Shown one piece after another: positions 28,129-58,700 of a stretch of DNA of 64,000 nt. This stretch comes from Tubulanus polymorphus (lineage: Eukaryota; Animalia; Nemertea). How positions within the stretch are numbered: position 1 is the first letter of the stretch; each line of letters starts with the position of its first letter. The DNA is taken from assembly GCF_964204645.1 (NCBI RefSeq), contig NC_134029.1, positions 2,480,001 through 2,544,000 of the forward strand, read 5' to 3'. Under the pieces are notes generated by a model. The model ran no database searches, had not been told where the DNA came from, and saw only the letters and a program-made list of their open reading frames with translations. The translations under genes were made by a program, and so were the position numbers.

Positions 28129-28410
28129 TTACAGTAGAGAATGGGTGCTTACCTTTGATGTACAGTAGATTAAGGCATTTCTTATGATCTACAGTAGTCT
28201 TGACTGTGCGCTTGCCTTTGATTTACAGTAGATTGAGGCATTTCCTCTGATGTACAGTAGTCTAGACTGTGCGCTTGCCTTTGATTTACAGTAGATTGAG
28301 GCATTTCCTCTGATGTACAGTAGTCTAGACTGTGTGCTTATCTTTGATCTACGGTAGATTGAGATCAGGAAATGCCTTTGATCTACAGTAGACTGCGCGC
28401 TTGATCTAAC
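28129..28410. repeat. Minisatellite in the SYAP1 3' region (63 bp dimer of ~30+33 bp subunits)
   Basis: Alternating tacagtagattgaggcatttcctctgatg and tacagtagtctagactgtgcgcttgcctttgatt. Confidence 0.85.
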
Positions 28411-35613: not shown

Positions 35614-37599
35614 ATGGCGGCGCCCAGTGTTTTGCTGGGAAGCTGTTTTGAGTTTGATTTAAAGAATTTGGTTCGAGGTAAGACTTTAATCGGGTTTTTC
35701 AGTGTAATCGAGTGTGAACGCCAGCACATTCAGTTCGGAAATGAGTTAGATATTTTGCATCTATCGTTGAATCGGTGAAAAACAGTCAAAAAGTAGTCAA
35801 AATATCGCGGTATTTATTTACTTCCGGGTTTTGACGTACCATTTTGATGTACCATTTTTTTTACTTAGGCTATCATAATCGTGAAACCTTTTGACTGTTG
35901 ATTTTTTTCTTTTAAGAAATATTGGATTCTGAAGAATTACCTGCATTTACTTCGCCCCTGCCTGAGATTAGTGCCTATAATTGGGCTGTAGACACCAAGT
36001 ATTACACAGCTGATGTAAATCTATGTATAGCAGCATCAAGAACTATTGGAACTGAAGAATTTGCAGACAGTGTTCAGGCTATTATACTTGTATTTGATAG
36101 TAAAGATGTAAGTATTTTGATCGTGTACAATGAAATGCTCTATCATCCGGGAAAACTCAGGTAATTTAGGAATATAGATCACAAGAGGATGAAAGATTGA
36201 TACTTGCTCAAGGGCAGGATTTTTATGTAATCAACAAGTTGTGTCGATGTTGTTAAAGTTTTGCATCAATAAAATCATTTCAGGAAGATTCGTTCAAACT
36301 TCTGCAGTCATGGATTCCATTCGTTGATCTATTTAAGCCAGCTGTGCAGTTACTAGTCTGTCAAAGATCGACACAAATTGATGGTTAGTTTCCACACTCT
36401 GAGCCTTAACTCTTGAATCATAATCAAATTCGTTATTACTGCTATTGACTTATTTGTAGCTGTTCCGAGGGCTAAAGTTTTCAACTGGTGTTTAGACCAT
36501 GATTTCGAACTGATCGAATTAGATCCAGAAGAGGAAAGCGAAGATGAAGAAGAAGATGGTAATTTCCTCATCTGATTGACGATCGTTGTAATTGAGTTGT
36601 ATTCATTTCTATTGTTTGTTTCTCCATATTTCAGAAGCGTTTAAAGATGTTATTGGTGTAAAACGAATTGTACAAGCACTGCATTCTCATCCCTGGCCAA
36701 ATCTTACTATGAAAGGTACAATATTAACAATTACTGTAAAATCTGCTTGTTACTCAAAACTAGGTACATGTTAACATATCTAGGTTCTAATAAGGATCCC
36801 TTATTCCTTGTGATCAAGACCAGTCAATATGTTCTCTTCAATGGGAAACTTTGTATTATTGCATTATTTTTTGCAACTCAAACATCATGATCCTGGTTTC
36901 CATAGTCAGCTAGCATTGTCAGTTGAATTTGTCAGTTCCACACATTTTATACATTTCAATTTTAGAACAACAACCATTCCATAAACAAGCCCTGATAAAT
37001 GGTCTCATGTCACAGAATGAAATTGCTGCTGGAAATGATGAAATCATAGAAACCTCTCCCGAGCAGGATTCTTCAAACCTACCAGTAGCTGCTGCTACTG
37101 GACAGAATAAGAACAATATTCTAGACGAGCAAATCGGTAAACAATTAAAAGAACAACATTTTCATTCGTGGCCCTGAATTTGATTGAAAAGATTATGGAT
37201 GTTGTTTTAATGATAATGATATCTATTTCAGATGCTTTACTAAAGGAAGATCTGAAAGCATTCGAATCGATTACGGATGAAGATGAAGATTCCTTCGAGA
37301 AATTATTCGAGAAAATGAGTTTAATGAAAGGTATTGAATGATTTGAAATTGTAATTCATTGATTACAACAGTTTTAACATTCAACCATTCATTCTATTTT
37401 TAGAGAAAACGGATAAACTGGATCCTGAAGCTCGGAAACTTTACGCTGAAAAGGTATTGAAGTAATAAATCGTCAATTAACTAAATATCCAATGTATATT
37501 CACTGTGATCTCTTCTGTGGACAGGTTGCTATTAGTTTTTGGAAGGCTATTGGTGGCGATGACAGTGAAATAGAAGGTTTAGATGATGAAAGTGATTGA
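35614..37599 (+). CDS. AAGAB: Alpha- and gamma-adaptin-binding protein p34, multi-exon
   Basis: MAAPSVLLGSC start. Exons encode WAVDTKYYTADVNLC, WCLDHDFELIELDP, GVKRIVQALHSHPWPNLTMK, SFEKLFEKM, RKLYAEK and VAISFWKAIGGDDSEIEGL; stop at 37597-37599. Confidence 0.93.
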
Positions 37600-38479
37600 A
37601 GACACTAGTTTTAGTTTATGTAATATAGTGTGCAACATGTATGGTTCATGTATTTATAAATAATGTAGCTGTATTATTTTATTGTAAATACTCTAAGTCG
37701 TAAACAATGCTTTGTTTATTTGTAAAAAATAATAATAATGGCAATACTCTAACTGTACAAAAGTGTATTTATTCGATTGGTTAACTACCTCGCTGCAGAA
37801 CATCATCAACTGAGTTGAGAATCTGGGACAATTCGAGAGTGTTTCATACGAAGAAGTCAACAACAGAATTTCTCTTTCGGAGGGAGACTTGAACAAAATT
37901 TATTAATACTGATTGAGCAACCTTTGCTGTTTTCATTACAAACCCTTCCATCAAATTACAAACTTGATTTGATTGCAAACTCCTGTTCATGAGATTATTC
38001 TCTTCATGTATAAATGCATAATAATATGAGACATTCCTCAGATCAGAGGAATCCGCAGCTCAAGAGGAATCATCAACTCTTTAGGAGCAACATTTTAAAC
38101 GTAAGATATGAATCGTTATAGAATAATTATTGCGGTGGAACCTAGTTATAATGAACTCAGTTATTAAGGCGAAAACAATATGACCGAAATGATTTAATTC
38201 CGTCAGTTCATGAAGTATATTCTATTGAGGTTCCATGGTTAACGAAAAACGCTTTCTGGTCATTGCACTTTTTTAATGATTTATGTACGAACTAAAACTA
38301 AAATCTAATTACTAGCGCTATATGAAATTCTACTCGATCTACTACTGGTAGATAGCACTACAAAAGAAATACAAAATCTAACTCATATACAACAAATAAA
38401 CACTTGCAATTGACAAATTTTGCTTCCATCTTGTCAAAAAAGCAAATTTCCAATGAGACAAACAAATACAAGACAATTC

Positions 38480-39017
38480 CAGAGGAACCTTGTTTTAACG
38501 ACCTCAGATATTACGATTTATCAGATAATACACAACCAAGAATTTTATCCCAAATAATTTTAATACAGTAGACTCCACTTAAACCCGTACAGTTGGGACT
38601 TTCAACCAAATTAGGTGGTTAAGTCCTTCAATCATTAAACTTGACACTTCATGTTTCTCTTAAATTCCACAACACTTTCCTTTAGGTTGACGCGTGATGC
38701 ACTAGCGTCATGAAAACTATGGCCAATTTAGATCATGAGCGCGCAGTAGAAGTAACATAGAGCCTTAACATTATTGTTTACCAGTTTACATGCTGAATGA
38801 AAGGAAATGATGTCAAAATTTTACCAGATAAGGTTGATTACCGATGAGTAATACCGGACTAGGCGATATCTATGAATTGAAAAACGATAGCAAACGGAAG
38901 TTTTATTTTCATTTCACTGAATTAAAGGGGTTTACGCGGAGTCTACTGTCATTTCATACTGGATACAACAAACAGATTTTCTGGTCCCCTGAGGTTTGTT
39001 GTAACGAGGTTCCACTG
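38480..39017. mobile_element. Nested pogo/Tigger-type MITEs
   Basis: Outer element: cagaggaaccttgttttaac ... gttgtaacgaggttccactg|ta. Inner element 38566-38948: ta|cagtagactccacttaaaccc ... ggggtttacgcggagtctactg. CAGT termini at TA are typical of pogo/Tigger. Confidence 0.7.
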
Positions 39018-39128
39018 TAGATTGATTGATAACTACAGAAAACATACAACAAAGGAATATGTAAATAATGAAGTAATGAAGATTACGCAATAAATGCCTG
39101 ATTTATTCTTAAAATCAGTGACCGATAT

Positions 39129-41196
39129 TTACTCGGTAACGCGATCTGGATTCATTTGTTTTTGCGGACAGTTTCGTGAAATGTGCCCCAAATTATGGCA
39201 GTTGTAACATCGTACAGCACCCGAATTGTTGTACGGTGGTTTATTATTTTGAGTGTGATGAGAGGGTCGATTAGCGTAACACCTCGCCGTAGTGTGACCG
39301 GCTATCTTACAATTCTGACAATACAGCGGTGTTTTACAAGCTCTATCCGAGTGACCGACCAAGTTACAATATCTGCACGGCTTTGTGCGACAATCGGTGA
39401 TCACGTGACCCGACATTCGACAGTAAGCGCAATACGGACGATTCTCGACGAACCCCGGATATTTCGGACAACAGAACTTTGTGTGATCGCTTCCCCCACA
39501 CATCGTACAGCCTCTGGATTCAACCAGGTTATCACCGCTGAAAACGAAACCGGATCATGGCGGATTAACGAATGTATACTCAGTGACTAAGACAATGATT
39601 AATCCTATAGCAATGATATTTCAAAGTTAATTTATCTGACTATTTCAATATTAGAAATATTCATTGAAACCCCTTGTATAATTCATATTAATGGTTTTGT
39701 AAGCATAAAACAAAATCTTGTATGAATCTCGGATTACATTTTAAATTATTTGAGATATCTAAGATATGATATATTTTCTGAGAGCTCACCTCGCAGCAGC
39801 AGTGAACGTGTCTTTAATTACAGTTGAATCTACAGCAGTATTTGAAGTACGACTCGGCCAACCTGATTTCATCGCATTCCCTATATCTAAATAGATAAAC
39901 TCAGATTACCCGGTAATCATCTAATATTGCAGTTTATTCCAATCGAATGATAAAAACGTTTTAACTGTTTACCAGGCACAGACTGCTCTTCATCCCAAAC
40001 TGGTTCAGGTGATGTAACCACTGTGTGTTGTAATTCTGATGCTATATTTTCACTTGATCTCGTATGTTTCAGTCGGTTTTTCTGGTTTCTCTTTTTCCTA
40101 CCTGAACGTTTTTTCCCACCAGAATCAATAGAATCTACTGGTGATGGGGTAGAGCGTTGAGGTTCAGTAGATGCTGGTCTGTGGGGGTCAGTAGATGCTG
40201 GTCTGTGAGGATCAGTAGATGCTGGTCTGTGAGGTTCAGTAGATGCTGGTCTGTGGGGATCAGTAGATGCTGGTCTGTGGGGATCAGTAGATGCTGGTCT
40301 GTGAGGATCAGTAGATGCTGGTCTGTGGGGATCAGTAGATGCTGGTCTGTGAGGATCAGTAAATGCTGGTCTGTGAGGATCAGTAGATGCTGGTCTGTGA
40401 GGATCAGTGTGAGCTGCTACTGCCGTTGGCTGATGTAATTCTGTCTCCCAGTTCTCTCTGTTTTCAGATTGATATAAACGATTTGAATTCCACGAATCTC
40501 TCTGGTGACCTTGACTGGAAGATGCTGGTTGCCATGATGATCCACTATCACTGTAATGATGTCGATTGTAACCTGTCGGTTGCCATGATGATCCTCTATC
40601 ACTATTGTGATGACTGGAAGCTGCTGGATGCCATGATGATCCATTATCGCCATGGTGATGTTGGTTGCGCGATACCGGTTGCCTCGACGAACCTGTATCG
40701 CCATGGTGATATTGATTATAAGATGCAGGCTGCCATGACGACCTACTATCTCTCTGATATCTGGTTTCATTGAAGTCATGCGACTGGTATGTGGTCGTAT
40801 CCCATGAGCCTCCATTATCAATATGATGCGTTTGCCCTTGACCCCAGTAAGCCTCATTCTGGTGATTGAAGGACTGTCTGCCGGGTTCCTCAATGAGAGC
40901 TGGTGGTGGTGATGGTACAACATCAGTACGTCTAGTTTCAGAGATGTTGCCGGTGCTGGTAGCAGCTGGGTTCACTGCAGATGCAATTGGAGGTGGTGGT
41001 CGGAGAACATCAATAAACGGCGGTGTCCAGGGAACATCAGCTGAATGTGGAATAAACGCACCACTGAAATCTGTAAAGAAGTTTTTATAGTTGAACAATT
41101 TGTCAAATTTCAAAAAGTTGCAAATCATTGACGCAATACGTACTAGGAAACGACTGCATCTGATAAAACTGATATGGATTTACTGGTGCTCCGCCA

Positions 41197-41227
<31 letters not shown>

Positions 41228-44200
41228 CACACATCATCATACGAATGTAAGCCTCAGGAAGATCGGGTTTTAACTGAGCTGTTGAAGCTGGCGGCCGTTT
41301 TCTGATCGGTCTCAGCGGATGTTCAGTCATATCAGCATCAGATTCCGATGTAGAATGAGCCGAAACATTCAAACCTTTCAATTTACGATCAGCTTTTCTC
41401 TGACACTCTGAATAACGAAATCAGTACATGTTTTACTAATAACAGGCATCAAGATTTATGCAATACTCCGAGTCAGTGTGGTAACCATAATATAAACTCC
41501 CACACTGAGAATAAAGAGTCCTTGAGCTAACATCTTCATCAACATTTCAACTCTATCCTAATAAGTCATCTTCAGAATCATATTTAACATTACCCTCATT
41601 GTCCCTATTTCTAACTTAAATTCACCCAAGTATTCCCGTAGATGACTATTAGGATACAGTCAAAAGCTCAAGGAAACATTTTGGACAAGGTTCAGTGTTT
41701 ATTTGTGAGAGAAAGTAAAATAATTACCTATTTTGTATAGATGTTCGTATATATTAACAGCTGGTCCAACCTTTGCGAAATCAATCAGACGAACATGAAC
41801 TAAACCACCAGGACTACATGCCACCTATTAGACAAGTACACAACTATATTCCACAACTCTGTTTCTCACAGGTTTTCTCGAAATGAAGTCACGATTACTA
41901 GTAAATGAGTTCTCACCACTTCGACCCTGAAAGTTTTGTCTTTCGTGAACGTTTCGAAGAAAGTCATCGATTCCCTTGAAAAGGTGGACAGTTCCTGACA
42001 TCCGATTGCGCACTTTACAGCCTTTAAACATAGAACAATACACTGCATCATTCTCGGCAGGTTAGGTGTAATTAACCCAGATATAACACCCACATCGATG
42101 ATCGTGTCAGGCATATCAGGAGTTAAATAGGATAACCACTTTTATTTCACTAGGCTTTTCCTTGACATGTATGTTGCTTTCCCTGACTTGATCTGCTAAC
42201 AATTCAATCAATTAACAGTCAAATTTGATAGACATAACAGAAACTGTTTGCTTTTATGCGTAATCTAGCAATCTCAACACATTTCCCTGACTTTTGGCTA
42301 TTTTCAACAAATTTCCCAGACTGTTTTAAAGAAAAGAAAATTACCCAACTTTTCACTGATTTCCAGGTAAAATGGCCACTCTGTTAATTGTGACAAGTTC
42401 TAAGACAAAATACAGATAGAGATTTCTGTTCTAAGAAAAACCTGGTGTAAGGCGGAGGTGGCGGTATATCATGGGTTCACTGTACCTGAAATGGCGCGAG
42501 ACCGACTAGAGGCATACACCTCAAATGTTCAATACGAACTCTTGCACTCGTTCCGTGATCCAAAAAACGAACTTTCACTTTCTGCAAAAACAAAATCGAT
42601 GGTTTCAAAATAGAGCAGCATCGAAAATTGAGAAATCAGATTTCATTGAGTTCAAAATTGAAAGCAACGTCAATGTCAAACTCATTTAAATAATCATCAA
42701 ATAAGTCATCAAATTACTGTTGCCACTAATTATGAGTCCCATTCAGATAACAACGTAGCCACACTCTGACTAGTGAAGTCATCTGTAATTTTCTGCATGA
42801 ATTTGTACTTCAATTTACTAAGAATCATTTACATCAACGATGACTTTGACAGTACGAAATATGAAATGAATACCGGGTATGTGAAACGAACCTCTGTTCT
42901 CTGGTCAATGTTTTCTAGTTGAGCCCGATACCACACTTTCTGAAACTGAGCCAATACGACAGTTCCTACCGATACTGTTATACACGGGCATGGCGAACTC
43001 TCACCCAGATTTCTGAGAATACCAGAAAAAAGACAAACATCAAACATGAACAAAATGAGTAAATTGCCTGACCCTTGACAAAAACTCGCTTATTAAATCA
43101 TAAGACCTCCTCAGAGGGGACTCTTTCTTCTTGCGCCAAAAATTCAAATTCCCTGACTTTTCCCTGATTTTCAAGAAAAGAGTTAGAATTCCCTCATCCG
43201 TGAAAACCCCGATTAAAGTGAGCATCTTACATCTTAAATATGACTGAATACGGTACTGCATCGTATGATTTCAATATCATAATAGGGGTGGGAATAAATA
43301 AACAATGATTGACAGCTCTTACTGAATCATTCCCTGTAACTGTTGAATTTCCTCTTCAGACCGGACACGATAATGACGCAGCCAAAATGTGCCATCACTG
43401 TGGAGATTGTTCGTTACTTTCGCCAAAAATGTGCAACCTACAATAAATTCACGTTAATCAACGTTTTGACTGATGTAGCAAGTTTTATAATCGATATTGG
43501 AACAACATGTAACACTAACCTGGAGTATAAACACCCGACCAATTGCACGTCTCCTCAGCTTTCATCAGCAATGCATTCATTTGTTCATCGCTCAGTTTAT
43601 TTTCAGTATACAACTCAGGTTTTATTTCAGGAGTTTTTTGTCTCAGTTTCTGTTGATTGTTAATCATAGACTGTTGTCTATTTAACTGATGTTGATCTCT
43701 TGCGGAATCCACTGTATCAGCACCACTCATATTGATAGTTTGATCTATAGCAGCAGTGCTCAAGTTGAAAGTTTGATCTGTATTGGCATTGCTCAAGTTG
43801 AAAGTTTGATCTGTATTAGGAGCGCTCATGTTGAAAGTTTCATCTGTATTTACTGCTTCAGGGATCGATGTTAAAACGCAATCATTTGACAAACTTGGCA
43901 CCGAATCTAAAATATTTTCAAATCACAATTGAACTTAAAGAAGAGGACAAAAGTTCTTAATGATGTTAAACCCCTAAATTGAAGCTTTTTACTGACCTGA
44001 GATATCTACATCTTTAGCAGTAACCCAATGATTGGACACATCAGCAGTAGAACTATCAGGAACACTTATAGGTTCAGCAGTAGAATCAGGTAAAACTGAT
44101 TGATGAGCAACAGATGGAACTGGTTGAATTATACAGGACGATTTGGTGCAAGACTCTCTGCTATCAGGCTCACAGTACTCCCGCCTATCAGGCTCACAGG

Positions 44201-47200
44201 ACTCCTCGCTACCCAGCTCACAGGAGTCTCTGCTATCAGGCTCACAGGACTCCCGCCTATCAGGCTCACAGGAGTCTCTGCTACCCAGCTTGCAGGAGTC
44301 TCTGCTATCTGGCTCACAGGAGTCTCTGCTATCTGGCTCACAGGAGTCTCTGCTATCTGGCTCACAGGACTTCTGGCTATCTGGCTCACAGGACTCTCTG
44401 CTACCAAGCTCACAGGAGTCTCTGCTATCAGGCTCACAGGTATCCATGCTATCTGGCTCACGGGTATCCATGTTATCTGGCTCACCAGACTCTCTGCTAT
44501 CTGGCTGACAGATGTCCTTGCTAACTACCCTCCAGGTCTCACTGCTAGCTACCTCACAGGTATCTATGCTATCTGGCTCACAGGACTTCCAGCTATCTGG
44601 CTCACAGGTCTCCCTGCTGTCCTCAAAGATCTCCCCGCGAACTGGCTCTACGCACGTTTCATTACGAGCATCGTGGTAAATATCCACAGCCGTATTTTCA
44701 CCACCATCAACACTATCAGTCTCTAAAACTGGTGAGGATAACGTGAGACCTTCCTGTAATGAGAGGAAGAAAAAAATACAACTACTGCTATGTGAATCAT
44801 TATTATATCAAAATCTTAAAAATCTAGCGATATAGAATCAGATAACCTGTATAGATTAGCGGGGTAATGCTATCATTTGGTCGAAGTGCAACTTAGTACT
44901 TACTATTTCCATTGCTTTTTTTATGATATCTTCGACGAATTTAGCAATTTTTGCATCGACTTCACCTTCATCAATACTCGAGCAATCTGGAGTCTTGACA
45001 CAGATATTTGGAGGAGTATCCAATGAGACAGCAGCACGTTCATTACGATAATCCATCTTCTCACTCGAGACTTCAGAAACATCGATATCTCGTTCGGGCA
45101 GACGGGTGTAATCTACCGATATCTCATTATGGACCTGGACCAGTAAACCGGAGTTGGTTTGCTCCGAGCTCGCAGTATCTGTTGGAGTATCAGTCACTCC
45201 GGAGGATGTCATCAGATTCTGATTACTGTGTAAATATGCATCACTCTGCATCAATACGTTCACAGCTTCTTCCATTATATCCGAAACTATAGATGATGAG
45301 GAAGCGTTTATTTGATCCTCATGAGTAGTAGAATCACTCACACGTCGAGTGCTATCAGCGTGCTGCTGTCCTGACGTTGTCGCGCTATCAGTATATTCTC
45401 TAATGATATTAGATATGGCTTTTTGAACCTCCAAGTCGGCGACTTCCACAGCAGCTTGCGTTTTATAATTGAGTTTTTTGCTGATATTTCCATTATTATC
45501 GATGAGAGACCCGCGTTGTAGAATGCTGATCGGTTGCGCAATGTCAGCTGAGGTCACTGTGTGTACGATAACAGGGTCAGTAAAATCACCGGATCCTGAA
45601 TTGACTGTTATTTCTTTATCATCAGTTACAGTTTGAGGAGTATTATCAGGAAGAGTTGTGCAGTCCGGTTGTTCTTCGTGTTTCTACAAATATAATCAAA
45701 CAATGAGCAACTGCAAATTCTACTCTCATCTTCTGGGTTCAATTTCTTCTACAAATCTGTTAAAATTGAATGAACTTTTTTTTACAATAAATCAATTATC
45801 AATAAAACCTATTTCAATCACAGAGTAGAAAAATGAATTCGAAGTATATTTGCCGAAAAGTTCAGTTCAAAGTTTATTGATAATGGTCTAATTTTGATGT
45901 TAGACTGGTAGCTTGTCACTTCAACTGGTGAGATAGTTAGTGTCACAAGTCACTGTTATGTTAAAACAAATCAAGAAACTTTGAAGTTCAAATTGACATC
46001 ACAATTTTTACCTCTATTTGATTGTCCTCTTTAATAGTAACGGCATCATCTGAAATAAAGATGTAACTTCATTAAGTGAGAACCACAAATTTAAACAAAA
46101 TACATTCTTTAAAATGATTGACACGAGAAGCAGAACTTACTGTCATATTCAGCTTTAATGCGAGTCAATTTCAAAATTCGACCATCACAGTTGTAATGTT
46201 GAAATTGTTCCATACGTAGATCACATTCATGGTCAGTATGATATCGAATGAAACAAGCCCCTGGTCTGTTTCAAATCATAAAACACATTCAAATAGTTTC
46301 ATTTTTTGGATTACCGGGTTACTGATACAGGTATTAATCTACTGTCTGCACCCTCACCCCTCAGACAACCAACTGTCTGCACCCTCACCCCTCAGACCAC
46401 CAACTGTCTGCACCCTCACTCCTCAGACCACCAACTGTCTGCACCCTCACTCCTCAGACCACCAACTGTCTGCACCCTCACCCCTCAGACCACCAACTGT
46501 CTGCACCCTCACTCCTCAGACCACCAACTGTCTGCACCCTCACCCCTCAGACAACCAACTGTCTGCACCCTCACCCCTCAGACCACCACCTGTCTGCACC
46601 CTCACCCCTCAGACCACCAACTGTCTGCACCCTCAACCCTCATCCTTTCAAGACTTCCGAGATTTGGCCCAAGACATTTTTAATTATCATGGAATTTCAA
46701 TTGGCTTTTCGTTTCGCCACATAGACATGGTTTTATCATTACAGATGGTAAATCAGATTGTACAGATGATTATCTGAGGATGTACAAGGCACAGGCAGCA
46801 GATTGACATCGATATCTCAACGATAAAATCACCACCCAATACTTACGGCTTCTTCTGTATTCTAGATCCTCTTCTGTCCGGTTTTTTCTGATAGCTCAAC
46901 CATATATCAACAGCGTCGGGGAATAATTCAGCAGCTCGCTGATTATCAAATGAAGGTGGTAAATTCCTGATAACTATACCCGGCAGCTTCTTATAATCAA
47001 CTACAATAGAAAATTATCTCAGTAACCTGCAGTGTATGTTATTCTTTGTGCATCTTTTTGAGTATCAGGATAATTGCCACACATTTTTCATCAACTAAAT
47101 CCTTTATAATCTTTGGAATGAAGTACAACCAACGGTTCACCTTGATACTAACTACTAATTCTAAAGCCTACTTCACTAATCTAAGTAAATAAGTGTACAG

Positions 47201-50200
47201 CTTAATACTGTAGGACTAATTGATTGATTTGTCTTATTCTGCTAAAGTATCACCAAAAATAATATTCTGCTTTATACATCTATACTTAACAAAAATATGA
47301 ATGAATTTCAAAGTGAAGTTGTTTTTAGTTATATTCAAAGAATGAAGCTGGCCTTCTTGAGAATAATGAGGGAGGGCAGTTGTCCTTCATGTATTATTTT
47401 GACGTCATTTCTACGGTTTTTATTTCATGCAACTGTTGAGTCATGAGGTATATATACTACTTGACGAGTGACATCAGGCAGTTTGTTCTATTGTAGTGCG
47501 TAACCACCATCAATCAAGTGTATGACAAGTTATATTGTCGTGTCTGTCATGTCTCCTCAGTCTATCGGATATTTCTGACCATAACATCAAATTACCGACT
47601 TGCCTTAGAACTTCTGGATCCAGTTCCTTGATTCTGAATATTTGAGTTATGTTATTTATCGAATATGAACAATTTTCATAAGAGTCTAACTATGGAACTA
47701 TGAAACTGGTCCTGTGGTCACGTGAATGTGTTCATTCAAAGACAAGAACAAAAACACAAATAATTGGTTTTATATGGATTCTTGTTTATTATATTATAGC
47801 AAAAAGCACAGATTTCAATAATCTGCTGTAAATATTTACAGTCACTTGAATTATTACATACTTCGTCTCTCTACACATTTGCGACACTAGTTTTCTAATT
47901 AGTTCATTCTATTAAATCATTTATTCATTTTCTATGTTACATTTATTCATTTTCTATGTTAAGTACATTTTATTGTCATTAGTCTAACAAGCTTACAACT
48001 GATTCATATGCATATAGGCTGGTGCAGCACCTGATGTAGATCACAGATTCAGATGCATGATTTGATTAGTTTGCGAATGCGTTGTTTGATGCGTAGGAGG
48101 CTGGTGCAGCACCTGCTGATGCTGCTGCTGCTGCTGCTGCATGTGGTTAGCGTTATGTTGTGTGTTGATATGAGTAACGGGAGGATGAGGAGAATGCATC
48201 GGCGATGGATGTTGCTGCTGCTGATGCTGTTGTTGATGATGCTGCTGCTGCTGCTGCTGCTGCTGGTGTGATACAGGATGACTCATCAGCATCGACTGTC
48301 CACCAGCGGGTGCTATATTAACCGGTTGATAGTGAGGATGTATGATAGTGGCGGTCATCGTGACCGGCGTGTGCAGTAACCCGGCCTGTAAATACCCATC
48401 ACGGACGACGTCCACTTTCTGACTGGTTCTCTCGTGGACGGCCATCAACCACATCGCGTGAACCGGCTTCAGAACGTTCATACGTAGATCGACATTAACC
48501 GCTTCCATACGAGCGACCGTCTGATCGCCGTTATGATACATCTGCTGTTCTAACTGTTTAACCATCTGCTGTAAATACCACGTATGAAAACATTCGCGTA
48601 GATCGTCTTTATAATGTTTGACGACCGTTAAATCGATCGGTTGTAGTTTATCGGCGACCTGCGACGGTACGAACACGACGTAGATCGCGTGCTGTCGTAG
48701 TCGTTCTAACAGACCGTCGCCGCGGAACGGTTTATTAACGTCGAACACGGCCAGCGACGGATGATCGGGAACTAACCCCTGAACGTATCGTTGGTGTCGT
48801 ACGTACGGTACGATCACGTTATCTACGAACTGATACAACGTCGTCTCGTCGGCTTCGTGATTCTCAGAGTGCGTTATATGCCAACCGTTCGGGAAGTTCA
48901 CGTTCGGGTGACACTTATCGGTTTTACCGCCGTAGATCACCTGCGGCGGTAACAAACACCCGGACATCGTTACGGCTAACATCACCGATATCTGACGTTT
49001 ATCCTCGTGGTTGCTGTGATTGACGATAATCGGGGCAGAGTTGGCGTCGTTTTGAGGAACGGTCCAGTCGTTTCCCGGTACGAGATTCAGAGGAATCATA
49101 TCCCAGTTTATAACGAGCGTTTCCGGGATGTTATTCTCTTGCATACACGACCGGACGCCGACGATAAACGACGTTCGCACCGCCTCGAAATCCTCCGGTA
49201 ATTGTTTCGCCGGTTTTTTCTTGTTATCCTTCGCGCCGCGGTGTTTCACGAACCCCATACGCTGCAGGAACGACTTCGCCCACGACATCGTCACGTTTAT
49301 CGGTCCGCCGTATTGCGATAAACTCGTCTTATCGAACTTCGTGATGATTCCCTCGGCGGCGGCCATGACGGTACGAGCGTTCACGACGCCTCCGCTCGCG
49401 TGCGTCTTCTTCACCCATTCCTGAACCATCACGTCGTAGTTGCCAAGTCGAAGCGGTTGACCTCGTTGCCCCTTCGGTAGCGTGTTCACGTCCGTACTGT
49501 CTTTAGCTTTAGCCACCAGTCTCAGATACGTTGATTTCATGTGTCTCACCGTGCTATCGCTGATAGTTTTACCCAATTCGCGGCTGTATATTTTCACCGT
49601 TCGCGGTATGCCGACGTCCAGAGCCGATTTCGCGATCTTCGCTCTCAGCTCGTCCGAGTAATAATTGTACTCTCCTCGTTTACGCTTGGCGCCGCTGGTT
49701 TCTAAAGCTCGTTTCACGCTGTCGTTCGCCGCTTGCATCATCGTATCTGAATCGATATCGACTGATTTATCCGCTTCCTCCGACGCTTGTTTCTTCGGTT
49801 CATCGAAAGACGAACTCAGTTCCTCGTCTAACTCGGCCTGACGAGCCGCAGCTTGCTCCCGGCGAGCGCTCTGACGCGTTTTCTGTCTCGTTCGACCTGC
49901 AATGAAAAGACTTTTTATTTTCAATTCTGATATGATATCTTACATATTTCTGCTCCGTTCATAAAGGAATCAGGACTCCGAGCCTTGCGCAACAATGACT
50001 CGGTTACACAGTCGGATGTATAGGTGAGAATTTAATCGACTTTAATTTTTTATCCACTTTGAAACTGAGTTCAGGTACAGTGAAAGCCTTCTAAAATGCA
50101 ACTGTTGAGACCGATGAAAAACATGGTGTTATAACCAATTTGGCTTTAGAAAGAATTGGCATTTACATTGAATTTGAGTGAGATTGAGTAAATTCATTCC

Positions 50201-53200
50201 CTGAAAATGTTGGTATTTAAAAGGGTGACGTTGTAACGGACTTTGACTGTGTATCGAGTATAATTAAGTAAGTCAAAATTTCTTATAAAACATCATTATA
50301 TGAAATGTTCATTCCCCATTGGGGACGTTGAGAGCACACAAAACATGGCTAGAAGAGGCCTAGGATAGGTATAAATCTGAGAGTGACCTGAACGAGGATT
50401 TGAATGACGCTGAATGCACATACCTGTACGAAACAGCTTTTAGTCTTCATCACTTTATGTTTCCCCCACCAGGTGGACGCACGCTTCTCGAGATTGATTG
50501 ACTACATATTTTCTCATTAATTTGCGACTCCTTTCAAAAGAACATTTTTCAACGGAACTCAAACCCGAAATAATACGCCGGTCATTTTTTTCTTGTTTTA
50601 ATTTGGAAATTCACAAAATACAACATACAAAATACAGAGGGTTTTTTCGTTTCAAAATTCATGATTTTTCATATTAGATCTTGTCAGAACTACCGGTAAA
50701 TATTCACATGCCAAAACTTATTTTAGGGAGGTGATGAAATCCAGACAACCAGCCATGTCTGCACTCCACATTTTCAAAATAATGATGTTTTAGAAGGACT
50801 ATTACAACAATCAGTTAATATATTATACCACACAGGGAGGAGTAGGAAGGAGGAAAGAGGGAGCCGGGAGGGTACAGTTCCAGTTAAGAAATATTAGAAG
50901 GCATCTAAAAGAAAAGGTTATTTCTCGAATGAAGCATAAGAAAGATTTTCCAAGAGAATAAATAAGTTTGTAGGTCCTTGAAATGGAAGGCAGGGAAATA
51001 CACTTTAAGTCCATCCACCTTGGAGTTATAGTGAAGAGTGAATATTCTACCTCTAGTTCTACGCCGAGCGGCTGAAGGTCTATCATCATCCTGCGAATGT
51101 CCCGGGGAACCCATCGTATCAAACGCTTGTGGATTCTCAACGAGGCGATAATCGCGACACGCGATCGTATGCTCTTCTTTAGGCTTCGATTGAAATTCTT
51201 GAACTAGAAAATTCACGTAATAAAAATATTGATTGTATCTTCTCATCAATGTAGTCTAACTGATGTGAAAATGTAATCTATCTTTAGGGAGGAATGAGTG
51301 AAATTATTACTTTTGTTTTCCATGAGGTCATTAAGACAATCAGGTAAGGCAACACCTTGTGTATTGAGGAATCGGAATTCAGCGTGATAAACAGGCATCC
51401 CGTTATCATCAGCCACCTACAAACAATCAATTACAGTCTGTTAATACACTTTCAATCCAATAACTTAATAAAAACCCTCCACATTGTCGGGAATGAAAAA
51501 TGGAGTTCTGTTTTAACCATTCATTCAAATCGAAAAAATGTTGAACCAGCTCGAAATTAAATTGTCATTACTCCGAAATAAAATACTAAATTAATACCTT
51601 TGAGAGAATTTTACATTGAAGTAATTTATTTTTGACGAGGTCATTGAATTCCCAGCGAATTTGTCGATCGAGGTCTTCTTTAGATGTCTCACTCAACGAA
51701 CAGCAAAACGCCTTTAAAAAATATTTAACGATTTGATCAAAACTCATAAATAAACCATGAAAAGATGAAAATAGAGATTTGATTTTTGTGGTAATCAATA
51801 CTGACCTGATACGGTAAATTAGACACGATATCATCTCTGAACGGAAACACTTTATCCAGTGGAATTTCGGCGTTGTTTCCGAAATCTAAAAACCTCACAA
51901 GAGCCAAACTCTACAACAAAGAAATATATACCAGAGATTTCATCTAGATTTTAACCCAGTAGATCATCAGGGTAGCCACTTTAATTTAACTTGCTTATTC
52001 CCTGACTATTCACTGACATGCTAAGTTTTTCCCTGACCTGATCTGCCCAGATCCAATCCACTAACACAGTCAAATATGTAAGACATAGATGGAAACTATT
52101 TGATTTTTCACGCAATCTAGCAATTTCATCAAATTTCCCTGACTTATTGCTTTTTTACAATTTCCCAAACTTTTTTTAAGAAATGAAATTTTTCCGTGAT
52201 TTCCAGGTAACTCGACGTACCTTCTCCTGAGAGACTTTACAAACGAGGCCGCGGTACCAACGTTTATCTTTCTCGTTCTGCGCAAAACACAATGAATCGA
52301 TTTCAGGAACTTTAGACGAGTCGCCGTAAGAAATCCAATCACTACTCGTTAACCACGAACACCTAACGAATAACAATTTCAGTTATAAATACCAGTAGCA
52401 TAATAGAACGATAACCACACTCAAACGTGGTGAACGGATAATAAGATAAAAACCCACTATCTACAGATTAAAAGAATTTAAAAAGAAGAAATTTATTAAT
52501 TCGAACAATCTAAAAGAAATATATATTAGATATATTTTAGATTGTTTGAATTAATAAATTTCTTGTTTTTAAATTCTTTTAATTTGTAGATAGTGGGTTT
52601 TTATCTTAATACCAGTAGCCTTTTTATTAAAAACACGATGAAAGCTACATATCACACACACTTCATAATTAATCATTGATAACACGTATTGAAATGTAAA
52701 CTCACCTGATTTCATAATTCACGTGTAAAAGTCCTGTATAGATTTCTTTCTCTAATTCGGGATGAACCCAGAAATAACCGTTCGGGTTCATCAAATTAGC
52801 AACTTGAACCGTGTACGTTTCGCCTAGAAATATATAATTACAATCAGAATACACAATACAATAGGATTCATTCATCATTGTGAGGTAAAACTTTATAAAC
52901 TTACCCACTGTGACTTCGATAAGACCGTTCTTATTGATCTTACGTGGAATTTCATCTTTCGGCGCATTCATTTTTACTTTCATTTCAGGTATTGCTTCTT
53001 CGATTTGACCGAATTCCAGTTCGAATGACATGTCTAACTCGGGGAAAGCTTGCTTGTCACAAGAGAATTCAAGTGGATTCAGCTATAAGAAATTCAAATC
53101 CTATCAAACCTGAAACTGTGCAGCTTAAATCTAACTATCAAGAATTGGAGAGCTGAGTGGTTTATTTACCTTTCCATCCAAGTCTTGCATCCCCTTCTGA

Positions 53201-54923
53201 AATTCCTCTTCATCGACAACTTCTACTAACGATGCAAGTTTGTCACGAACCTGAAAAATAATATAGCAAGTGATATTTCATTAGAAAACAGAGCTAGGTT
53301 TTTGTCTTTCACATCAATATTTCACTGAGTTGAGAATCAAGGAAGATCAGTAGTAGTACTGTATCTAACAGGATGATGATGGTTTATGTTACCTGTTCCA
53401 TTTGCAGTATGTGTGATTTCTGACTTTGTTTTTGTTCCAGGATCCACGACTGTTTTTTTCCACTCAACTCTTTCAATTCGCTGATTATAGCTTTACCCTG
53501 ATTACGTAACATCACTGTCAGCGCTTGCACTTTATCTTTCACTTCTTGTTCATAAATCGACATCCTATAAAACAACAACATTGATGAAAAATTCAACATC
53601 TAAGGCTAAAAAAAATTGATACCTTGTTTCTCCGCTCTGCTGAGCTTAAATGTTGATCCGGCCGGCCGCCTATCTACCCTATACATTACTTTTTTTTAAA
53701 TCGGGGGATCATTTGTACCATAACAGACCCGGCCGCTATAGAAATGAACTGTTTACAAATTTTATCATATTTTACAAAAATGACCCGGCCGCTGCGGAGA
53801 AACAAGGTATCATTTTTGTTTAGCCAAAATCCCATCAGCAGAGAGAGAGAAATTGTGTTTCTCTGAAGATCATTTAAGTCAAGTTCAGTGTCTTTCAGGG
53901 GTCATTTTCATGAAGAAACTCAAAATGATGAAATAAAAGTTACCTTTCCACTAAATCATGTTCAGCTTTGTCCAACTCCTGGAATTTCCGTTTCACGATA
54001 GTTTCGTTTCTGAAAATGAGCGAAATTGATGAAAATTTCTGACGCACTAAAATAGCAAATATCAGAGAAAGGAAAATTTGAGGCTTACTTCATAAACGCT
54101 TCCAATGTTTCTTGTACATTTTGACGTTTCTGAAATATTAAAAAAGTCCTAATTTCAAATCCAAGTATAAACTAAGCAGAAATAAACGAACCATAAATTA
54201 AAACGTTTTACGGAATTTGCTTCAAATTTTGATATTAATAATTTTCTTTCACAAAGCGACTTACTTTCGACGCCAATGTGACAACTTGATGGTCGCGACA
54301 TTTCCCGCGATGAATAGAAGAGTTACATTCAACACATAACTTATACGCTGGAAGAATAACATAAATATTTCATTCCCAAAGAAAGAAGCAAAAAGAACAA
54401 AAAAGGGAAAGGCCAGGGCTCAACAGAAAATACACGTGCTGTTATTATATCAACAGCAGGACCACTTAACAACAGCATCATTACTTTAAATTTAGAACCA
54501 TAGATTGAATTGGTTCATTATTTGAGAAATTTAATTTTCAGCGATGAAGGAATGACAAATATAAGCGGCGAGTGAAATAAAGAAGAAAGGACAAAAAATA
54601 CAGGCCACACCCAAAAATACATTTAGCTAACCCCTGGGAATAATACAGCATTTACAAGTGTTGTTTATCTATTTTGACGGTTCAAAATATAACGCTTTAA
54701 CTTGGACGAAACAAAAGCGTTAAATAATCATCCGACGAATTCAGTGAAATTCACAAATATATCTTGAAACGGCAGAAATTCCTTTTATTTCTGCGAAAAT
54801 CGACGAATAAAAAGCGTCGAATTTATCGTTAATTAACGCGTTAATTAAACACTAACCTCCTTCACCGATACAATCAGGGCATTCAAACGATATCGGCTGT
54901 TTTTCACAACACTCGCACAACAT
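39129..54923 (-). CDS. ~2,000 aa B-box / coiled-coil / Tudor / RRM / low-complexity / Tudor / 5x CCHC zinc-knuckle protein (28 coding exons traced)
   Basis: ATG at 54923. B-box CECCEKQPISFECPDC..LCVECNSSIHRGKCRDH; coiled-coil exons 54129-53170; extended Tudor 1 (NPNGYFWV..DKRWYRG..VRFLDFGN..LPYQAFCCSL, 52824-51311); RRM (IVIRNLP..PGACFIRY, 47000-46141); extended Tudor 2 (GTFWL..VWYRA..VRFLDHG..APFQAVKC, ~43435-41728); five Cx2Cx4Hx4C knuckles in the last exon (39537-39129). All junctions traced are GT-AG and phase-consistent. Confidence 0.82.
40158..40410 (-). repeat. Coding 24 bp tandem repeat (STDPHRPA)n
   Basis: About 10 copies of ggatcagtagatgctggtctgtg(a/g) within an exon of the Tudor gene. 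Confidence 0.9.
42128..42383. mobile_element. hAT-like MITE with ttccctgac subrepeats (intronic)
   Basis: taggataaccac...tggccactctg termini. Aligns along its length with 51968-52211 (ttccctgac.tgatctgc, aacagtcaaat, aatctagcaat, tttccaggtaa). Confidence 0.65.
44150..44620 (-). repeat. Coding 24 bp tandem repeat (CEPDSRDS/ES)n
   Basis: Roughly 19 imperfect copies of ggctcacaggagtctctgctatc(t/a) inside exon ~44753-43997. Confidence 0.9.
46341..46641. repeat. Intronic 31 bp minisatellite
   Basis: aactgtctgcaccctcac(c/t)cctcagac(c/a)acc, about 9.5 copies, between the two RRM exons. Confidence 0.95.
47737..47790 (-). terminator. Intronic poly(A) signal for the transposase exon
   Basis: Minus-strand AATAAA at 47790-47785 followed ~25 nt downstream by GU/U-rich tttgtgtttttgttcttgtctttg (47760-47737). 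Further AATAAA at ~47925, ~47947 and ~47974. Confidence 0.6.
48041..49896 (-). CDS. pogo-family transposase-derived exon (HTH + CENP-B-type HTH + DDE_1, DD35D) with polyQ/His tail; alternative terminal exon in intron 13 of the Tudor gene
   Basis: Uninterrupted ~618 codons after acceptor ttttcattgcag|. Motifs: RGEYNYYSDELRAKIAK..ISDSTVR (HTH), RGQPLRLG linker, VQEWV..GGVVNARTVMAAA..SWAKSFLQRMGF (CENP-B HTH), INWD, KRQISVML..G..LPPQVIYGGKT, VFD, VP..DKLQPID. Confidence 0.9.
50078..50249. mobile_element. Degenerate pogo/Tigger-type MITE
   Basis: ta|cagtgaaagcctt ... aacggactttgactg, imperfect TIRs. Confidence 0.45.
51968..52211. mobile_element. hAT-like MITE with ttccctgac subrepeats (intronic, right end truncated)
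   Basis: Starts cagggtagccac; same family as 42128-42383. Confidence 0.65.
52388..52619. mobile_element. Short palindromic Penelope-like insertion with 12 bp TSD
   Basis: TSD aataccagtagc at 52388-52399 and 52608-52619. A ~40 bp unique tail is followed by a ~70 bp-arm inverted repeat taagataaaacccactatctaca..aacaatctaaaa / ttttagattgtt..tgtagatagtgggtttttatctta. Confidence 0.7.
53604..53825. mobile_element. PIF/Harbinger-like MITE
   Basis: 32 bp TIRs ggctaaaaaaaattgataccttgtttctccgc / gcggagaaacaaggtatcatttttgtttagcc (30/32 match), flanked by TAA / AAA, with internal ccggccg repeats. Confidence 0.85.
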
Positions 54924-55757
54924 CCTCACGGCGGCTACGGCTCCGAATTCGGCTAATTTTAAACGTGAAAATCGTCAAAACAACATTATTTTCCACGCGT
55001 GAATCCAAGATGGAGTCGTCAACGCGCGCGACTAAATTCCGAACTCACAACTGGCTCAGCGGTGGGAAACTTTACAAGAAAAACAACGTATAACTCATTT
55101 AAAACATAGCATACAAAGTGATTCTGTGTGTGATTAAACATTTAAGATTGAATTCAAAGTGCTCGCAATTGTGTAAATACAGTTTTGTTTGACGTCAAAT
55201 CTAATCTCTTTTCGTAATTTCGTTTTGTTTCTAGAACGGGCACCAATGCTTCGGCTCAGTAACATTCTGACCTAGCGTTGATTGAAAACCCATCGGATGG
55301 CTCAGTGAGTGGAAACATTCTTAAATCCAAATATTTTTCTTTGATTGATTTTTAACATTTTTCTGTCTTTTATAAAATCAAAAATAAACCCAATAAATAG
55401 ATTCAGATAAATATAGTATTCTTGTTCAAAATGACGATAAATAGCGTTAACTTTTTCATGAGCTTGTTAGGAGGTTATGATTAGGGTTTGATCGGAGGGC
55501 ACTGACAGTGCACGGACTCTTGGCCCAGCGGCGCTCAAACAAGCATCCAGCTGAAAACTGTTACTGATACGACGGTCAATATTTTACTGTCGTTGAAACG
55601 TTTTTATGACTAAATTACACTTTTTCTTTATTAATAATATGTAAATGATGAAATGAGTTATCTAAGTAAGTCTTAGTCAACTTTCTTCACGCAATCAATG
55701 AGAGAAATCACCTCTCTGCGTTTCATGTAGTCGTTTTAATGTTCTATGTTAGTAAAC

Positions 55758-58700
55758 ATGGCGGACAGTGACGAGGAAATCGGATCTATTTCTCCAACAA
55801 CTCCTGACAGTAATTGCGCCCATAGCGGCCCCAGGATTGTGACAATATCTAAAACTGAAACAGGGTTTGGTTTTAATGTTCGGGGTCAGGTTAGTGAAGG
55901 TGGACAGTTAAAGAGTATTAACGGAGAGCTGTATGCACCTTTACAACATGTAAGTGCCGTTTTGGAGGGTGGTGCTGCAGAACGAGCAGGAATTATGAAA
56001 GGAGATAGAATATTAGAAGTGTAAGTTCAGTTTGCATAGTTGTCAAATGTGTTTAGACTGTAGATTCCAGATAATTAAGATGTGCTTATTAAAATGAGAC
56101 TTAAATCTGATACAGCAACACCTGAACCTACCTAGGCTAACCAGCTAATTCTGATTGGATTGATTATTGTGGTTTTGATTTTAGGAATGGTGTAAATGTC
56201 GAAGGTGCTACTCATAAACAGGTTGTGGATTTGATTAAATCTGGTGGTGATGCATTAACATTGACTGGTGCGTAAACATATTTCCAGTTGATGAAGATTA
56301 AAAGATGCTTTTCATAATCAACAGTTATAGAAGTGTTTGTCTAATATTGTGATATGTTCTGTTTTCCTACTATAGTGATTTCAGTTCCGAGGCAAATAGC
56401 AGAGAAGTTAGAACCCAGCGACGACTCATCGGGACCGTCACTTATTGATTATTCTGAGAAAAGAACTTTACCGATATCAATACCAGATTATCAAGCATTA
56501 GAGAAAAACGGTGAAAGATTTGTGGTAAGAAAAATAGACTCTGGGTATTAAAGGATTAAACAGTAATATACTGCTGGTATGAAATGGTTAAACAATGGGC
56601 TAATAGACTCTGGGTATGAAATGGTTAAACAATGGGCTAATAGACTCTGGGTATGAAATATTTAAACAATGGGCTAATAGACTCTGGGTATGAAAAGGTT
56701 TAACAATGGGCTAATAGACTCTGGGTATGAAATGGTTAAACAATGGGCTAATTGACTCTGGGTATGAAAAGGTTTAACAATGGGCTAATAGACTCTGGGT
56801 ATGATAAGTGTAAAATCTTCGATCTCCAGTTTGGTGTATAAGTTAGAACTCTACAAGTATTCAATCATCTTATTATTCAATCAGTGATTTGTTGATTATT
56901 TTCAGGTTTATAATATTTATATGGCTGGACGTCATTTATGCTCAAGACGGTACAGTGAATTCGCGGAATTGCATCGGCAACTTAAAAAAGAATTTTCAGA
57001 CTTCAATTTTCCGAAGATACCGGGGAAATGGCCCTTCCAATTGTCCGAACAGCAATTAGACGCTCGGCGGAGAGGTTTAGAACAGTATTTAGAAAAAGGT
57101 TTGTGCGAATAACTCTTAATTCCTCTACTGGTCTATCTGGTATTCGTTCAGTTCAGTAAAATTAAAATTCGATTTCCATTTGGTATTGTTATTTCAAATA
57201 TCGCCTAGTCCTGCACTGCTCTATTCGATAATCCAACTTATCCGATAAAATTTTGACTTCATATCCCTTTATTCGGCGTCTCAACCATAAAGAATCTTCA
57301 CTTACAATACTTTGTTATGTTCTAATATCGATCTGTTTGGGGGAATATTAGGCCCTATGTTACTGCTACTGCATACTCATGACCTAAATTGACCATTACG
57401 CAAAAGTGTCGCAGAATTTAAGAGAAACATGAAATGTCAAGTTAATTGTGAAGGGCTTGTGTCTGGTATATTATATAAGGAATCATCGTTACGGTCTGAT
57501 TATATGAAATACAAGAAATTAGCAATGCAATATAGAATGCCATTAGACTCAATAATTCAATATTTTTATCCACTGATTTTTGTGGTTCTTCAAACCGGTA
57601 ACCCCCTTGTTCGGTATTCCACTGGTTTAAACAGGGTCTACCTATTATGAAACTAATCTCGGCGATATTGTCGTGATATTTTTTCCAGTTTGTGCAGTTC
57701 GAGTAATAGCCGAGAGTGATGTAGTACAAGAATTCCTATCAGCGTCCGACGATGATTCTGTATGTTTACTCGAAATTAACCGCATTATTTGAAAAATCTT
57801 TCTTTGCGATCACGATTATGATTCATTCATGTTTGCGAATGATGTTTTTAGAATTGTAATACGACCAGTGAGGTGGAGCTGAAAGTTTTACTGCCCGATC
57901 GAAATATACTTACAGTCACAATCAAACGCAATCATAACACTGAGCAGGTCTTTGATGTAAGTTTCTGGATCAATATCATCGCTGTTGACTGTGATTAATT
58001 GGTTATTGACACATTTCAACTCTGCCTAATTCAATCAAGTATAAGGTTAAAAAATGCTATCGCAGTTAAGTAGGTTAAGAATATCTAGCCTTTAATCAGA
58101 GCTTTCATTTGTAATTGATAGCAGCTATGTGTACTGTACTGTGTTGTTTAGGATGATGTTAATCTCGTAGATTATTGATTTTCTGTCAGTGAATTCCCCT
58201 GGGTTCATTCCGAGGATATGATTTACTGGCATTGATTTCTAGTTATTTGTTTGCTGAAATGGATGTTGAGATTATTAATCTTTCTATTTTCTGTGTTGTT
58301 TTTCTAATTTAGGTTGTGGTACAAAGACTTGGTCTCACCGATGACATTTCTATCAATTTTGCGCTATTTGAAATTGAAGAATACAACTTCGGTAAGTGAA
58401 AAGAAATCCCTAGTTTGCATAGATCGAGAGGAAATATATTAACGTTTAGTCCCAAATTGATTGAATACTATCTGTCGTAAGATCTTCTCGTTTGTATTCA
58501 AACCTGTCCAAAGTTCTAGTCAAATTGGCTTTTTGGACAATCATTATGGTGTCTGCTTCTGTAATGTCACATCCAGCTTTTCCAAATGATGACTTATGAT
58601 TAGTAATCTGGAGATATACAAATCGGTACTGGGAAATAGTGACGACTTAATAAAGTGAAAAATTATCCAAATGATGACATAACTGAGTTTGTAACGAGCA

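Follow-up and report, generated by a model that had tools for sequence, protein, structure and literature searches.

A single-copy pogo transposase exon in a Tudor gene of Tubulanus polymorphus: a probable host-transposase fusion by alternative splicing

Intron 13 of a B-box/coiled-coil/Tudor gene of the nemertean Tubulanus polymorphus holds an exon that encodes a pogo transposase. This exon is single-copy, has no transposon ends, is under purifying selection and very likely serves the gene as an alternative last exon. The gene lies on the minus strand of contig NC_134029.1 (assembly GCF_964204645.1), within positions 2,480,001 to 2,544,000, a stretch of 64,000 nucleotides (nt) that we call the window and whose numbering is used throughout. 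Joined to the 13 exons upstream, the transposase exon would give a DNA-binding fusion protein of 1,093 amino acids (aa) that probably does not transpose, and we assign this reading as a whole a probability of roughly 0.6. The features around the acceptor are as follows:

51051..51203, minus strand: exon 13, the last shared exon, with the phase-1 donor GAG/GTAGAA (gene model; an RNA contig reaches 51057).
50077..50251, no strand given: a short, degenerate element with CAGT ends, located upstream of the acceptor, its end type unlike the TA-CYGTA of the relatives.
48041..49896, minus strand: coding part of the transposase exon (open frame, Pfam, AlphaFold model, RNA contig 49898-47807, 14/14 synonymous differences).
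47737..48040, minus strand: 3' untranslated region (UTR), likely to hold the candidate poly(A) site of the transposase exon (AATAAA at 47790, followed by a T/G-rich stretch; RNA contig ends at 47807).

Exons 1-13 (54923..51051) encode 475 aa in a stop-free frame with GT-AG boundaries at all introns, and the last of them ends in phase 1 (...AARRRTR-G). As the initial annotation of this DNA had claimed, two acceptors further on, at 49896 and 47000, are both in frame and open. The first leads into 618 open codons, giving the fusion frame; the second leads into an RRM-like exon and 14 further exons, giving a long isoform of 28 exons and 2,022 aa with 0 internal stops (for one of its exons, 39886-39790, 97 nt, the evidence is a gap in an RNA contig). 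Both frames agree with the products of ~1,100 and ~2,000 aa proposed earlier. Acceptor 49896 has the top score among the 231 AGs of intron 13 (10.5 bits vs 5.7 bits for 47000) by a crude matrix built from this gene's other acceptors, and GC and CpG climb abruptly at this position. Two in-frame AGs upstream, at 49938 and 49926, were considered as acceptors and rejected (0.0 and 4.4 bits). Within the transposase exon, a linker without Met (codons 1-51) is followed by two predicted helix-turn-helix (HTH) domains (about residues 81-129 and 153-212), a DD35D core and a Q/H/P-rich tail; the first in-frame ATG is codon 52 (Met52), close to the ~50 codons originally estimated.

Four runs of one study cover the region, and none is recorded as RNA. 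One of them (X2) was taken as RNA because its contigs skip GT-AG introns of the Tudor gene and of a neighbour; contigs of two others (X3 and X4) read through introns. Contig depths were not used for ranking isoforms. X2 provides a 913-nt host contig that ends at 51057, a 2,076-nt transposase contig (49898-47807) and, carrying the joint 46847>46265, an RRM contig of 164 nt. The transposase exon and the downstream exons of the long isoform are both found in this spliced RNA, which supports the resemblance to the CSB-PGBD3 layout suggested in the initial annotation. The 3' end expected there stands in part: the AATAAA and the T/G-rich stretch are present, and three earlier AATAAA occur as well (47974, 47947 and 47925), which the transposase contig passes before it ends.

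The junction itself is read from contig-end geometry. Upstream of 49896 the transposase contig carries five more letters, of which three do not align. Letters from the intron (TGCAG) or from a candidate exon at 50424 (TACAG) would align further, and those of exon 13 (TAGAG) would not. We simulated the k=31 unitig graph under seven scenarios. The fusion model with a heterozygous base at 51056 gives a host end at 51057 and a transposase start five letters before the exon, both as observed. Under the two no-fusion models, one of unspliced RNA and one of the 50424 exon, the transposase contig should extend far upstream, which it does not, and all three models without a variant mismatch the observed ends. 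The variant is supported because an X3 contig, from a sample shared with X2, likewise aligns only as far as 51057 and has three unmatched letters beyond it. From this geometry we infer, with high probability, an exon 13>transposase junction that fits exon 13 and not unspliced RNA or the 50424 exon; some other upstream exon with a coincidental five-letter overlap is possible. Transcripts starting from the ~50424 exon had been named as evidence that would speak against a fusion. No contig links that exon to the transposase, and a low-depth contig (50445-50252) passes unspliced through its donor.

The transposase exon is domesticated, because its depth is single-copy, it has no inverted ends, its start motif is lost and its differences are synonymous (14/14). 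These differences separate the X2 contig, which comes from a second sample, from the window in codons 1-540, with no gaps, where ~11 non-synonymous changes were expected (P=7e-10); the count is within species only, skips 48105-48274 as repeat and leaves unlisted 8 differences of X1. For comparison, the coding differences listed for host exons are synonymous in 8/11 cases. No single-nucleotide polymorphism (SNP) falls within codons 1-51. DNA contig depth over the transposase open reading frame is 34.4, against ~31-37 in adjacent non-repeat bins, which corresponds to a single copy; diverged copies (<92%) are outside the reach of this measure. The many copies flanked by terminal inverted repeats that an ordinary mobile element would show were thus not seen. 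Among 80 related loci, the 35 that bear flanks were examined for their ends: TA-CYGTA-type terminal repeats occur in 14/35, several being copies of one family, and CAGT ends in 0/35. Around the transposase frame and in intron 13 there is no inverted-end pair of the relatives' type. The single 7-mer at 47206-47212 is no more than chance would give; TACYGTA is enriched across the window (29 vs 12), mainly from one tandem array (28130-28390). The whole of the CAGT-ended element lies on the upstream side of the acceptor, and its ends are not of this transposase family's type; it is probably not part of the captured transposon. Local CAGT-ended miniature inverted-repeat transposable elements (MITEs), once proposed as binding targets, are unlikely ones given the ends of the relatives.

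Both termini of the transposase differ from those of its relatives. The latter start with M-x-L-x-x-Y/W-F/V-K, about 20-35 residues before the Met52 column; here there is neither the motif nor its Met, and 51 codons are open. The linker had been described as host-like, which is true only in part: from about residue 30 it aligns with the relatives' N-terminus. After Gly500 there are 118 residues, compared with a median of 15 in relatives, and the 107-residue tail has 30 Gln and 18 His. In searches of 5.8 billion and 1.84 billion proteins, the closest proteins are 42-44% identical to the transposase. A quick tree of 40 rows (one truncated row dropped, no named reference transposases) identifies nearest neighbours only, and places the transposase with P0001, L001 and L002 (SH-aLRT, an approximate likelihood-ratio support value, 99) on a terminal branch of 0.93 vs a median of 0.46. 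The 475-aa host half has no match in the 80 relative loci or in 174 relative proteins, and no Tudor or B-box occurs in 14 long matches scanned. In the ESM Atlas, the transposase leads to generic DDE_1 clusters only, and a 126-aa host piece to no usable match.

The searches also returned other arrangements of this transposase clade. In a Sinanodonta woodiana gene model (P0060, KAL3842137.1) it follows a BTB domain; elsewhere (P0033 and P0130) it follows an N-terminal region of 175 aa that has no name, or precedes CUTL domains. These are possible further captures, and capture seems to recur. Seven loci (L014, L016, L018, L040, L042, L043 and L074), all from one metagenome assembly, belong to a DD35D pogo family that is young, possibly active and 2.7 kb long, with 42-nt terminal repeats that are nearly identical.

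The core has the DDE_1 domain, the DDD triad and the mariner-like fold of the pogo superfamily. DDE_1 (PF03184) is matched above the cut-off (E=5e-8), and HTH_Tnp_Tc5 weakly and below it (E=0.02). The catalytic triad (D265, D385 and D421) is intact, with the DD35D spacing of the Passer family (385 to 421), a spacing also shared with Fot/Fot-like elements (PMC7386202). An AlphaFold model (mean per-residue confidence, pLDDT, 80.5) shows two three-helix domains before a mariner-type core; its structural matches are Metnase (Z=16.4, root-mean-square deviation 3.1, 188 aligned), Mos1 (Z=15.7) and the CENP-B DNA-binding domain (Z=6.7). When solved structures were searched by profile, the outcome was a weak similarity to SETMAR and nothing more. 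Around this preserved fold, 12/64 family-conserved sites are lost, six of them within seven residues of a catalytic Asp (Q266M, T267I, F387N, T414A, L420I and N425V); W347E is another. The share lost is smaller in 38/40 relatives and larger in 2/40, one of which is truncated. The first Asp is followed by QT in 84/98 relatives and by MI in none; four residues after the third Asp, Asn is found in 82/96 and Val in none. Two further losses, R165H and R218H, lie in or beside the second HTH, and DNA specificity may have shifted with them. The fusion is likely to be catalytically inactive. POGZ keeps DD35D and did not transpose a Passer donor (PMC9976928), which shows that a preserved triad does not by itself imply activity.

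The host gene model combines single-exon Pfam matches, RNA joints and motifs, and its remaining features are listed here:

54923-54857 and 54347-54265, minus strand: exons 1-2, start codon and B-box-type zinc finger (gene model; zf-B_box E=0.009, exon 2, below cut-off; Cys/His spacing).
53170..54129, minus strand: exons 3-6, predicted coiled coil (gene model; weak coiled-coil family matches in exon 5).
51311..53082, minus strand: exons 7-12, linker and extended Tudor domain 1 (TUDOR E=0.001 in exon 9 and E=0.01 in exon 10; TDRD1 alignment; RNA joints).
47000-46847 and 46265-46141, minus strand: exons 14-15, which in the long isoform encode a putative RRM-like domain (frame continuous with exon 13; RNA joint 46847>46265; motif-based).
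41728..43437, minus strand: exons 20-24, extended Tudor domain 2, long isoform only (TUDOR E=0.02 and 0.01; DHGT at the cage motif).
39129..39537, minus strand: last exon of the long isoform, five CCHC zinc knuckles (zf-CCHC E=1e-6; five motifs; inside a spliced contig).

The RNA joints in exons 7-13 are 51806>51711, 51598>51416 and 51311>51203. TUDOR is matched in four exons (E=0.001-0.02), weakly and below cut-off, and the single-exon TUDOR and B-box matches follow the expected order along the profile. Above the cut-off are the zf-CCHC matches of the long isoform (E about 1e-6 to 2e-6). Exons 14 and 15 have no Pfam match to RRM; their IVIRNL and GACFIRY motifs resemble RNP2 and RNP1, which we take to mark an RRM-like domain.

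Several observations concern the surroundings of the gene. The long isoform contains two coding tandem repeats, ~19 copies of a Cys/Asp/Ser-rich octapeptide (CEPDSRDS-like, 44152-44618) and 10.5 copies of an HRPASTDP-like octapeptide (40158-40408). Its RNA contig continues ~1.2 kb beyond the stop to 37907 (37907-39128), a CAGT-ended element lies at 39019 inside its UTR, and a convergent plus-strand gene with spliced exons at 37000-37600 lies close to the contig's end. At the other end, a transcribed plus-strand region (55753-56000) begins ~800 nt upstream of the ATG, which suggests a head-to-head promoter. Intron 4 holds a 222-bp MITE-like element with 32-nt inverted ends (53604-53825), which belongs to a very abundant family (summed contig depth about 75,000-80,000, for DNA as well as for the spliced run). 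Intron 8 holds a 90-nt perfect-style hairpin (52434-52616; arms 90% complementary, 3-nt spacer), a high-copy repeat. The window also contains MED7, TAF1C and MRP-S27, the gene content of an animal. Coding CpG observed/expected is 1.0-1.9 in most coding regions tested, which suggests little DNA methylation, and 0.65 in the Q/H-rich tail; GC3 (GC at third codon positions) is 0.62 in the transposase core vs 0.41 in host exons.

Architectures with a B-box and extended Tudor domains occur in factors of the PIWI-interacting RNA (piRNA) pathway such as Qin/Kumo and RNF17. The initial annotation had taken the Tudors of this gene for methyl-arginine readers, a suggestion their cages do not bear out. 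The canonical cage for symmetric dimethylarginine consists of four aromatics and an Asn (bioRxiv 10.1101/2020.07.14.203323), and neither Tudor has four. Tudor 1 has AQN aligned to the AQF of TDRD1, with Asn for the first cage Phe (a weak alignment, E=0.46), and FLDFGN; Tudor 2 has AQF and WYR, and FLDHGT at the D-Y-G-N motif, with His/Thr for Tyr/Asn. Because both cages are without a canonical aromatic residue, methyl-arginine reading by either is doubtful. Single-exon searches give TDRD1 and TDRKH/TDRD3 as weak best matches (E=0.14-0.46), and the gene's tie to piRNAs appears here as a domain resemblance alone.

Taken together, these parts allow a mechanism to be proposed. At intron 13, the strong 49896 acceptor and its poly(A) signal would compete with the weaker 47000 acceptor, so that the choice of splice and poly(A) site sets the address module of one N-terminal scaffold. 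The 2,022-aa form, with RRM, second Tudor and five zinc knuckles, would be directed to RNA, and the fusion, through the transposase HTHs, to DNA. The fusion would then be a nuclear sequence-specific regulator: its HTHs may recognise sites descended from the TA-CYGTA-type ends of the parent element, its eroded core may be used in folding or dimerisation, its Q/H-rich tail may act as a low-complexity regulatory region, and its B-box, coiled coil and Tudor would attract partners. We see an even chance that the fusion binds DNA and acts as a regulator; by analogy, its most likely identity is a non-transposing DNA-binding regulator of the POGZ/POGK/CSB-PGBD3 kind.

Several points weigh against the reading of a spliced, non-transposing fusion. 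The contig ends fit the fusion model only, but no contig spans 51051>49896 or 51051>47000. The contig's three diagnostic letters are known only by their failure to align, the variant at 51056 is inferred and would alter an amino acid, and the RNA evidence comes from one sample of one study, as contigs only. The start of the RRM contig (46980) fits the simulation only with a second assumed variant, at a wobble position, because of which the exon 13>14 junction is less supported than exon 13>transposase. The billion-protein searches gave no orthologue above 44% identity, and no longer fused relatives (894-2,550 aa class) were found, a weak negative. Exact look-up of the Met52 and Met53 products found neither in a collection that holds two single-ORF neighbours; the annotated long isoform was not found in the protein collection either (again a weak negative), and the locus products are perhaps absent since annotation masked or merged the exon. 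Finally, the catalytic triad is retained, and Met52 precedes both HTHs, which makes a 566-aa protein starting there feasible.

This last point would suit a domesticated stand-alone nested gene, translated from Met52 under an internal or cryptic promoter, with the exon 13 link minor or unused. There is a strong donor at 50424 (9.2 bits), CSB exon 5 contains a cryptic promoter for PGBD3 (PMC2268245), and the linker offers no SNP to gauge selection on it. However, the transposase contig enters neither the intron nor the 50424 exon and starts where the exon 13 model predicts, the nearby 50445-50252 contig is unspliced across the donor, and 51 open GC-rich codons precede Met52, all of which make a stand-alone gene improbable. 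The retained triad, its 35-residue spacing, the complete fold and the strong purifying selection on the core could instead indicate that the fusion is an active enzyme, a nuclease or recombinase under host control (like RAG or PiggyMac) that the Tudor half directs to its targets. We consider this very improbable: six near-invariant residues beside the three Asp and the conserved Trp (347) are replaced, the MI and Val substitutions occur in no relative, and POGZ is inactive despite its triad (PMC9976928). A young or neutral insertion that is in frame by chance is barely credible. Such elements can bring their own acceptors (Cosby et al., bioRxiv 10.1101/2020.05.07.082677), but 0/14 non-synonymous differences, single-copy depth, absent ends, a lost start motif and an added 107-aa tail oppose it.

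A different alternative accepts the fusion as real and assigns it to transposon defence, where the Tudor and coiled coil would tie the PIWI/piRNA machinery, or the long isoform, to HTH-bound transposon ends. The B-box and extended Tudor shared with Qin/Kumo and RNF17 and the weak TDRD1 and TDRKH/TDRD3 matches favour it. So does the ability of incomplete cages to bind unmethylated PIWI tails, given that Krimper eTud1 binds unmethylated Ago3 and TDRD2 favours unmethylated repeats (bioRxiv 10.1101/2020.07.14.203323). Against this stand the cages, which make a methyl-reader unlikely, an orthology to known piRNA genes that is not established, and proposed CAGT targets of the wrong end type; we regard a defence role as unlikely. 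Slightly more doubtful is its fullest form, in which a piRNA Tudor scaffold captured the transposase, a switch in splicing redirects it from RNA to the DNA of transposons, and the fusion, alone or paired through the coiled coil with the long isoform, brings PIWI-type silencing to the terminal repeats of the parent family. If true, a defence gene would be using a captured transposase as a guide-independent DNA sensor. The locus would also be a test of whether transposon-defence genes recruit transposases. Since both isoforms persist and the transposase exon is separately removable, the fusion that we favour offers a clean test of the retargeting of a Tudor scaffold to chromatin.

No Tudor-pogo fusion was found in the literature, with most subscription papers outside the scope of the search. 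The word 'Tudor' is absent from PMC10027918 and from the main text of Cosby et al., whose supplements (55 host domains listed) may hold a Tudor host; in PMC7386202 and PMC13548663 it is an author name only.

As regards the host, Qin/Kumo and RNF17/TDRD4 combine B-box, coiled coil and extended Tudor in one protein, as here. The present gene differs from them in having no RING, one B-box and two Tudors only, plus an RRM-like domain and five CCHC knuckles. On the transposase side, POGZ and POGK are Passer-derived DD35D pogo domesticates that share with this exon the DD35D core, an HTH_Tnp_Tc5-type domain, an N-terminal host domain and purifying selection (PMC7386202, PMC9976928), and POGZ also retains the triad (PMC9976928). 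Their host domains are ZNF or KRAB (PMC7386202, PMC9976928). The Tudor gene keeps an alternative non-fusion isoform, and BrkDBD is without a match in 13/13 aligned members here. Because the closest relatives are 42-44% identical invertebrate-type elements, the capture is independent of POGZ/POGK.

The closest parallel in layout is CSB-PGBD3 (PMC2268245). There too, a complete transposase forms an alternative 3' terminal exon inside a single intron. That exon supplies both acceptor and poly(A) signal and continues the frame of about 465-475 host residues, and the parental form exists beside the fusion, as it probably does here. The differences are that a piggyBac element sits in ERCC6 intron 5 and a pogo element in the Tudor gene; that PGBD3 keeps its MER85 ends, whereas no inverted ends are left here; that the acceptor lies 7 nt from the first Met there and 52 codons here (PMC2268245); and that here the junction is deduced and the protein predicted from sequence. 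More generally, host-transposase fusions are well described in tetrapods, the scope of the Cosby et al. survey, and the present invertebrate-type case shares with them a capture that here is probably by alternative splicing, the transposase on its own exon and the DNA-binding domains that are kept (bioRxiv 10.1101/2020.05.07.082677). In that survey coexisting parental and fusion transcripts mark young fusions, whereas the present one looks well diverged. Described fusions mostly involve transcription-factor domains such as KRAB, SET and SCAN; here the host is a B-box/Tudor gene with RNA-binding domains, and the captured exon would swap its whole RNA-binding half for a predicted DNA-binding one.

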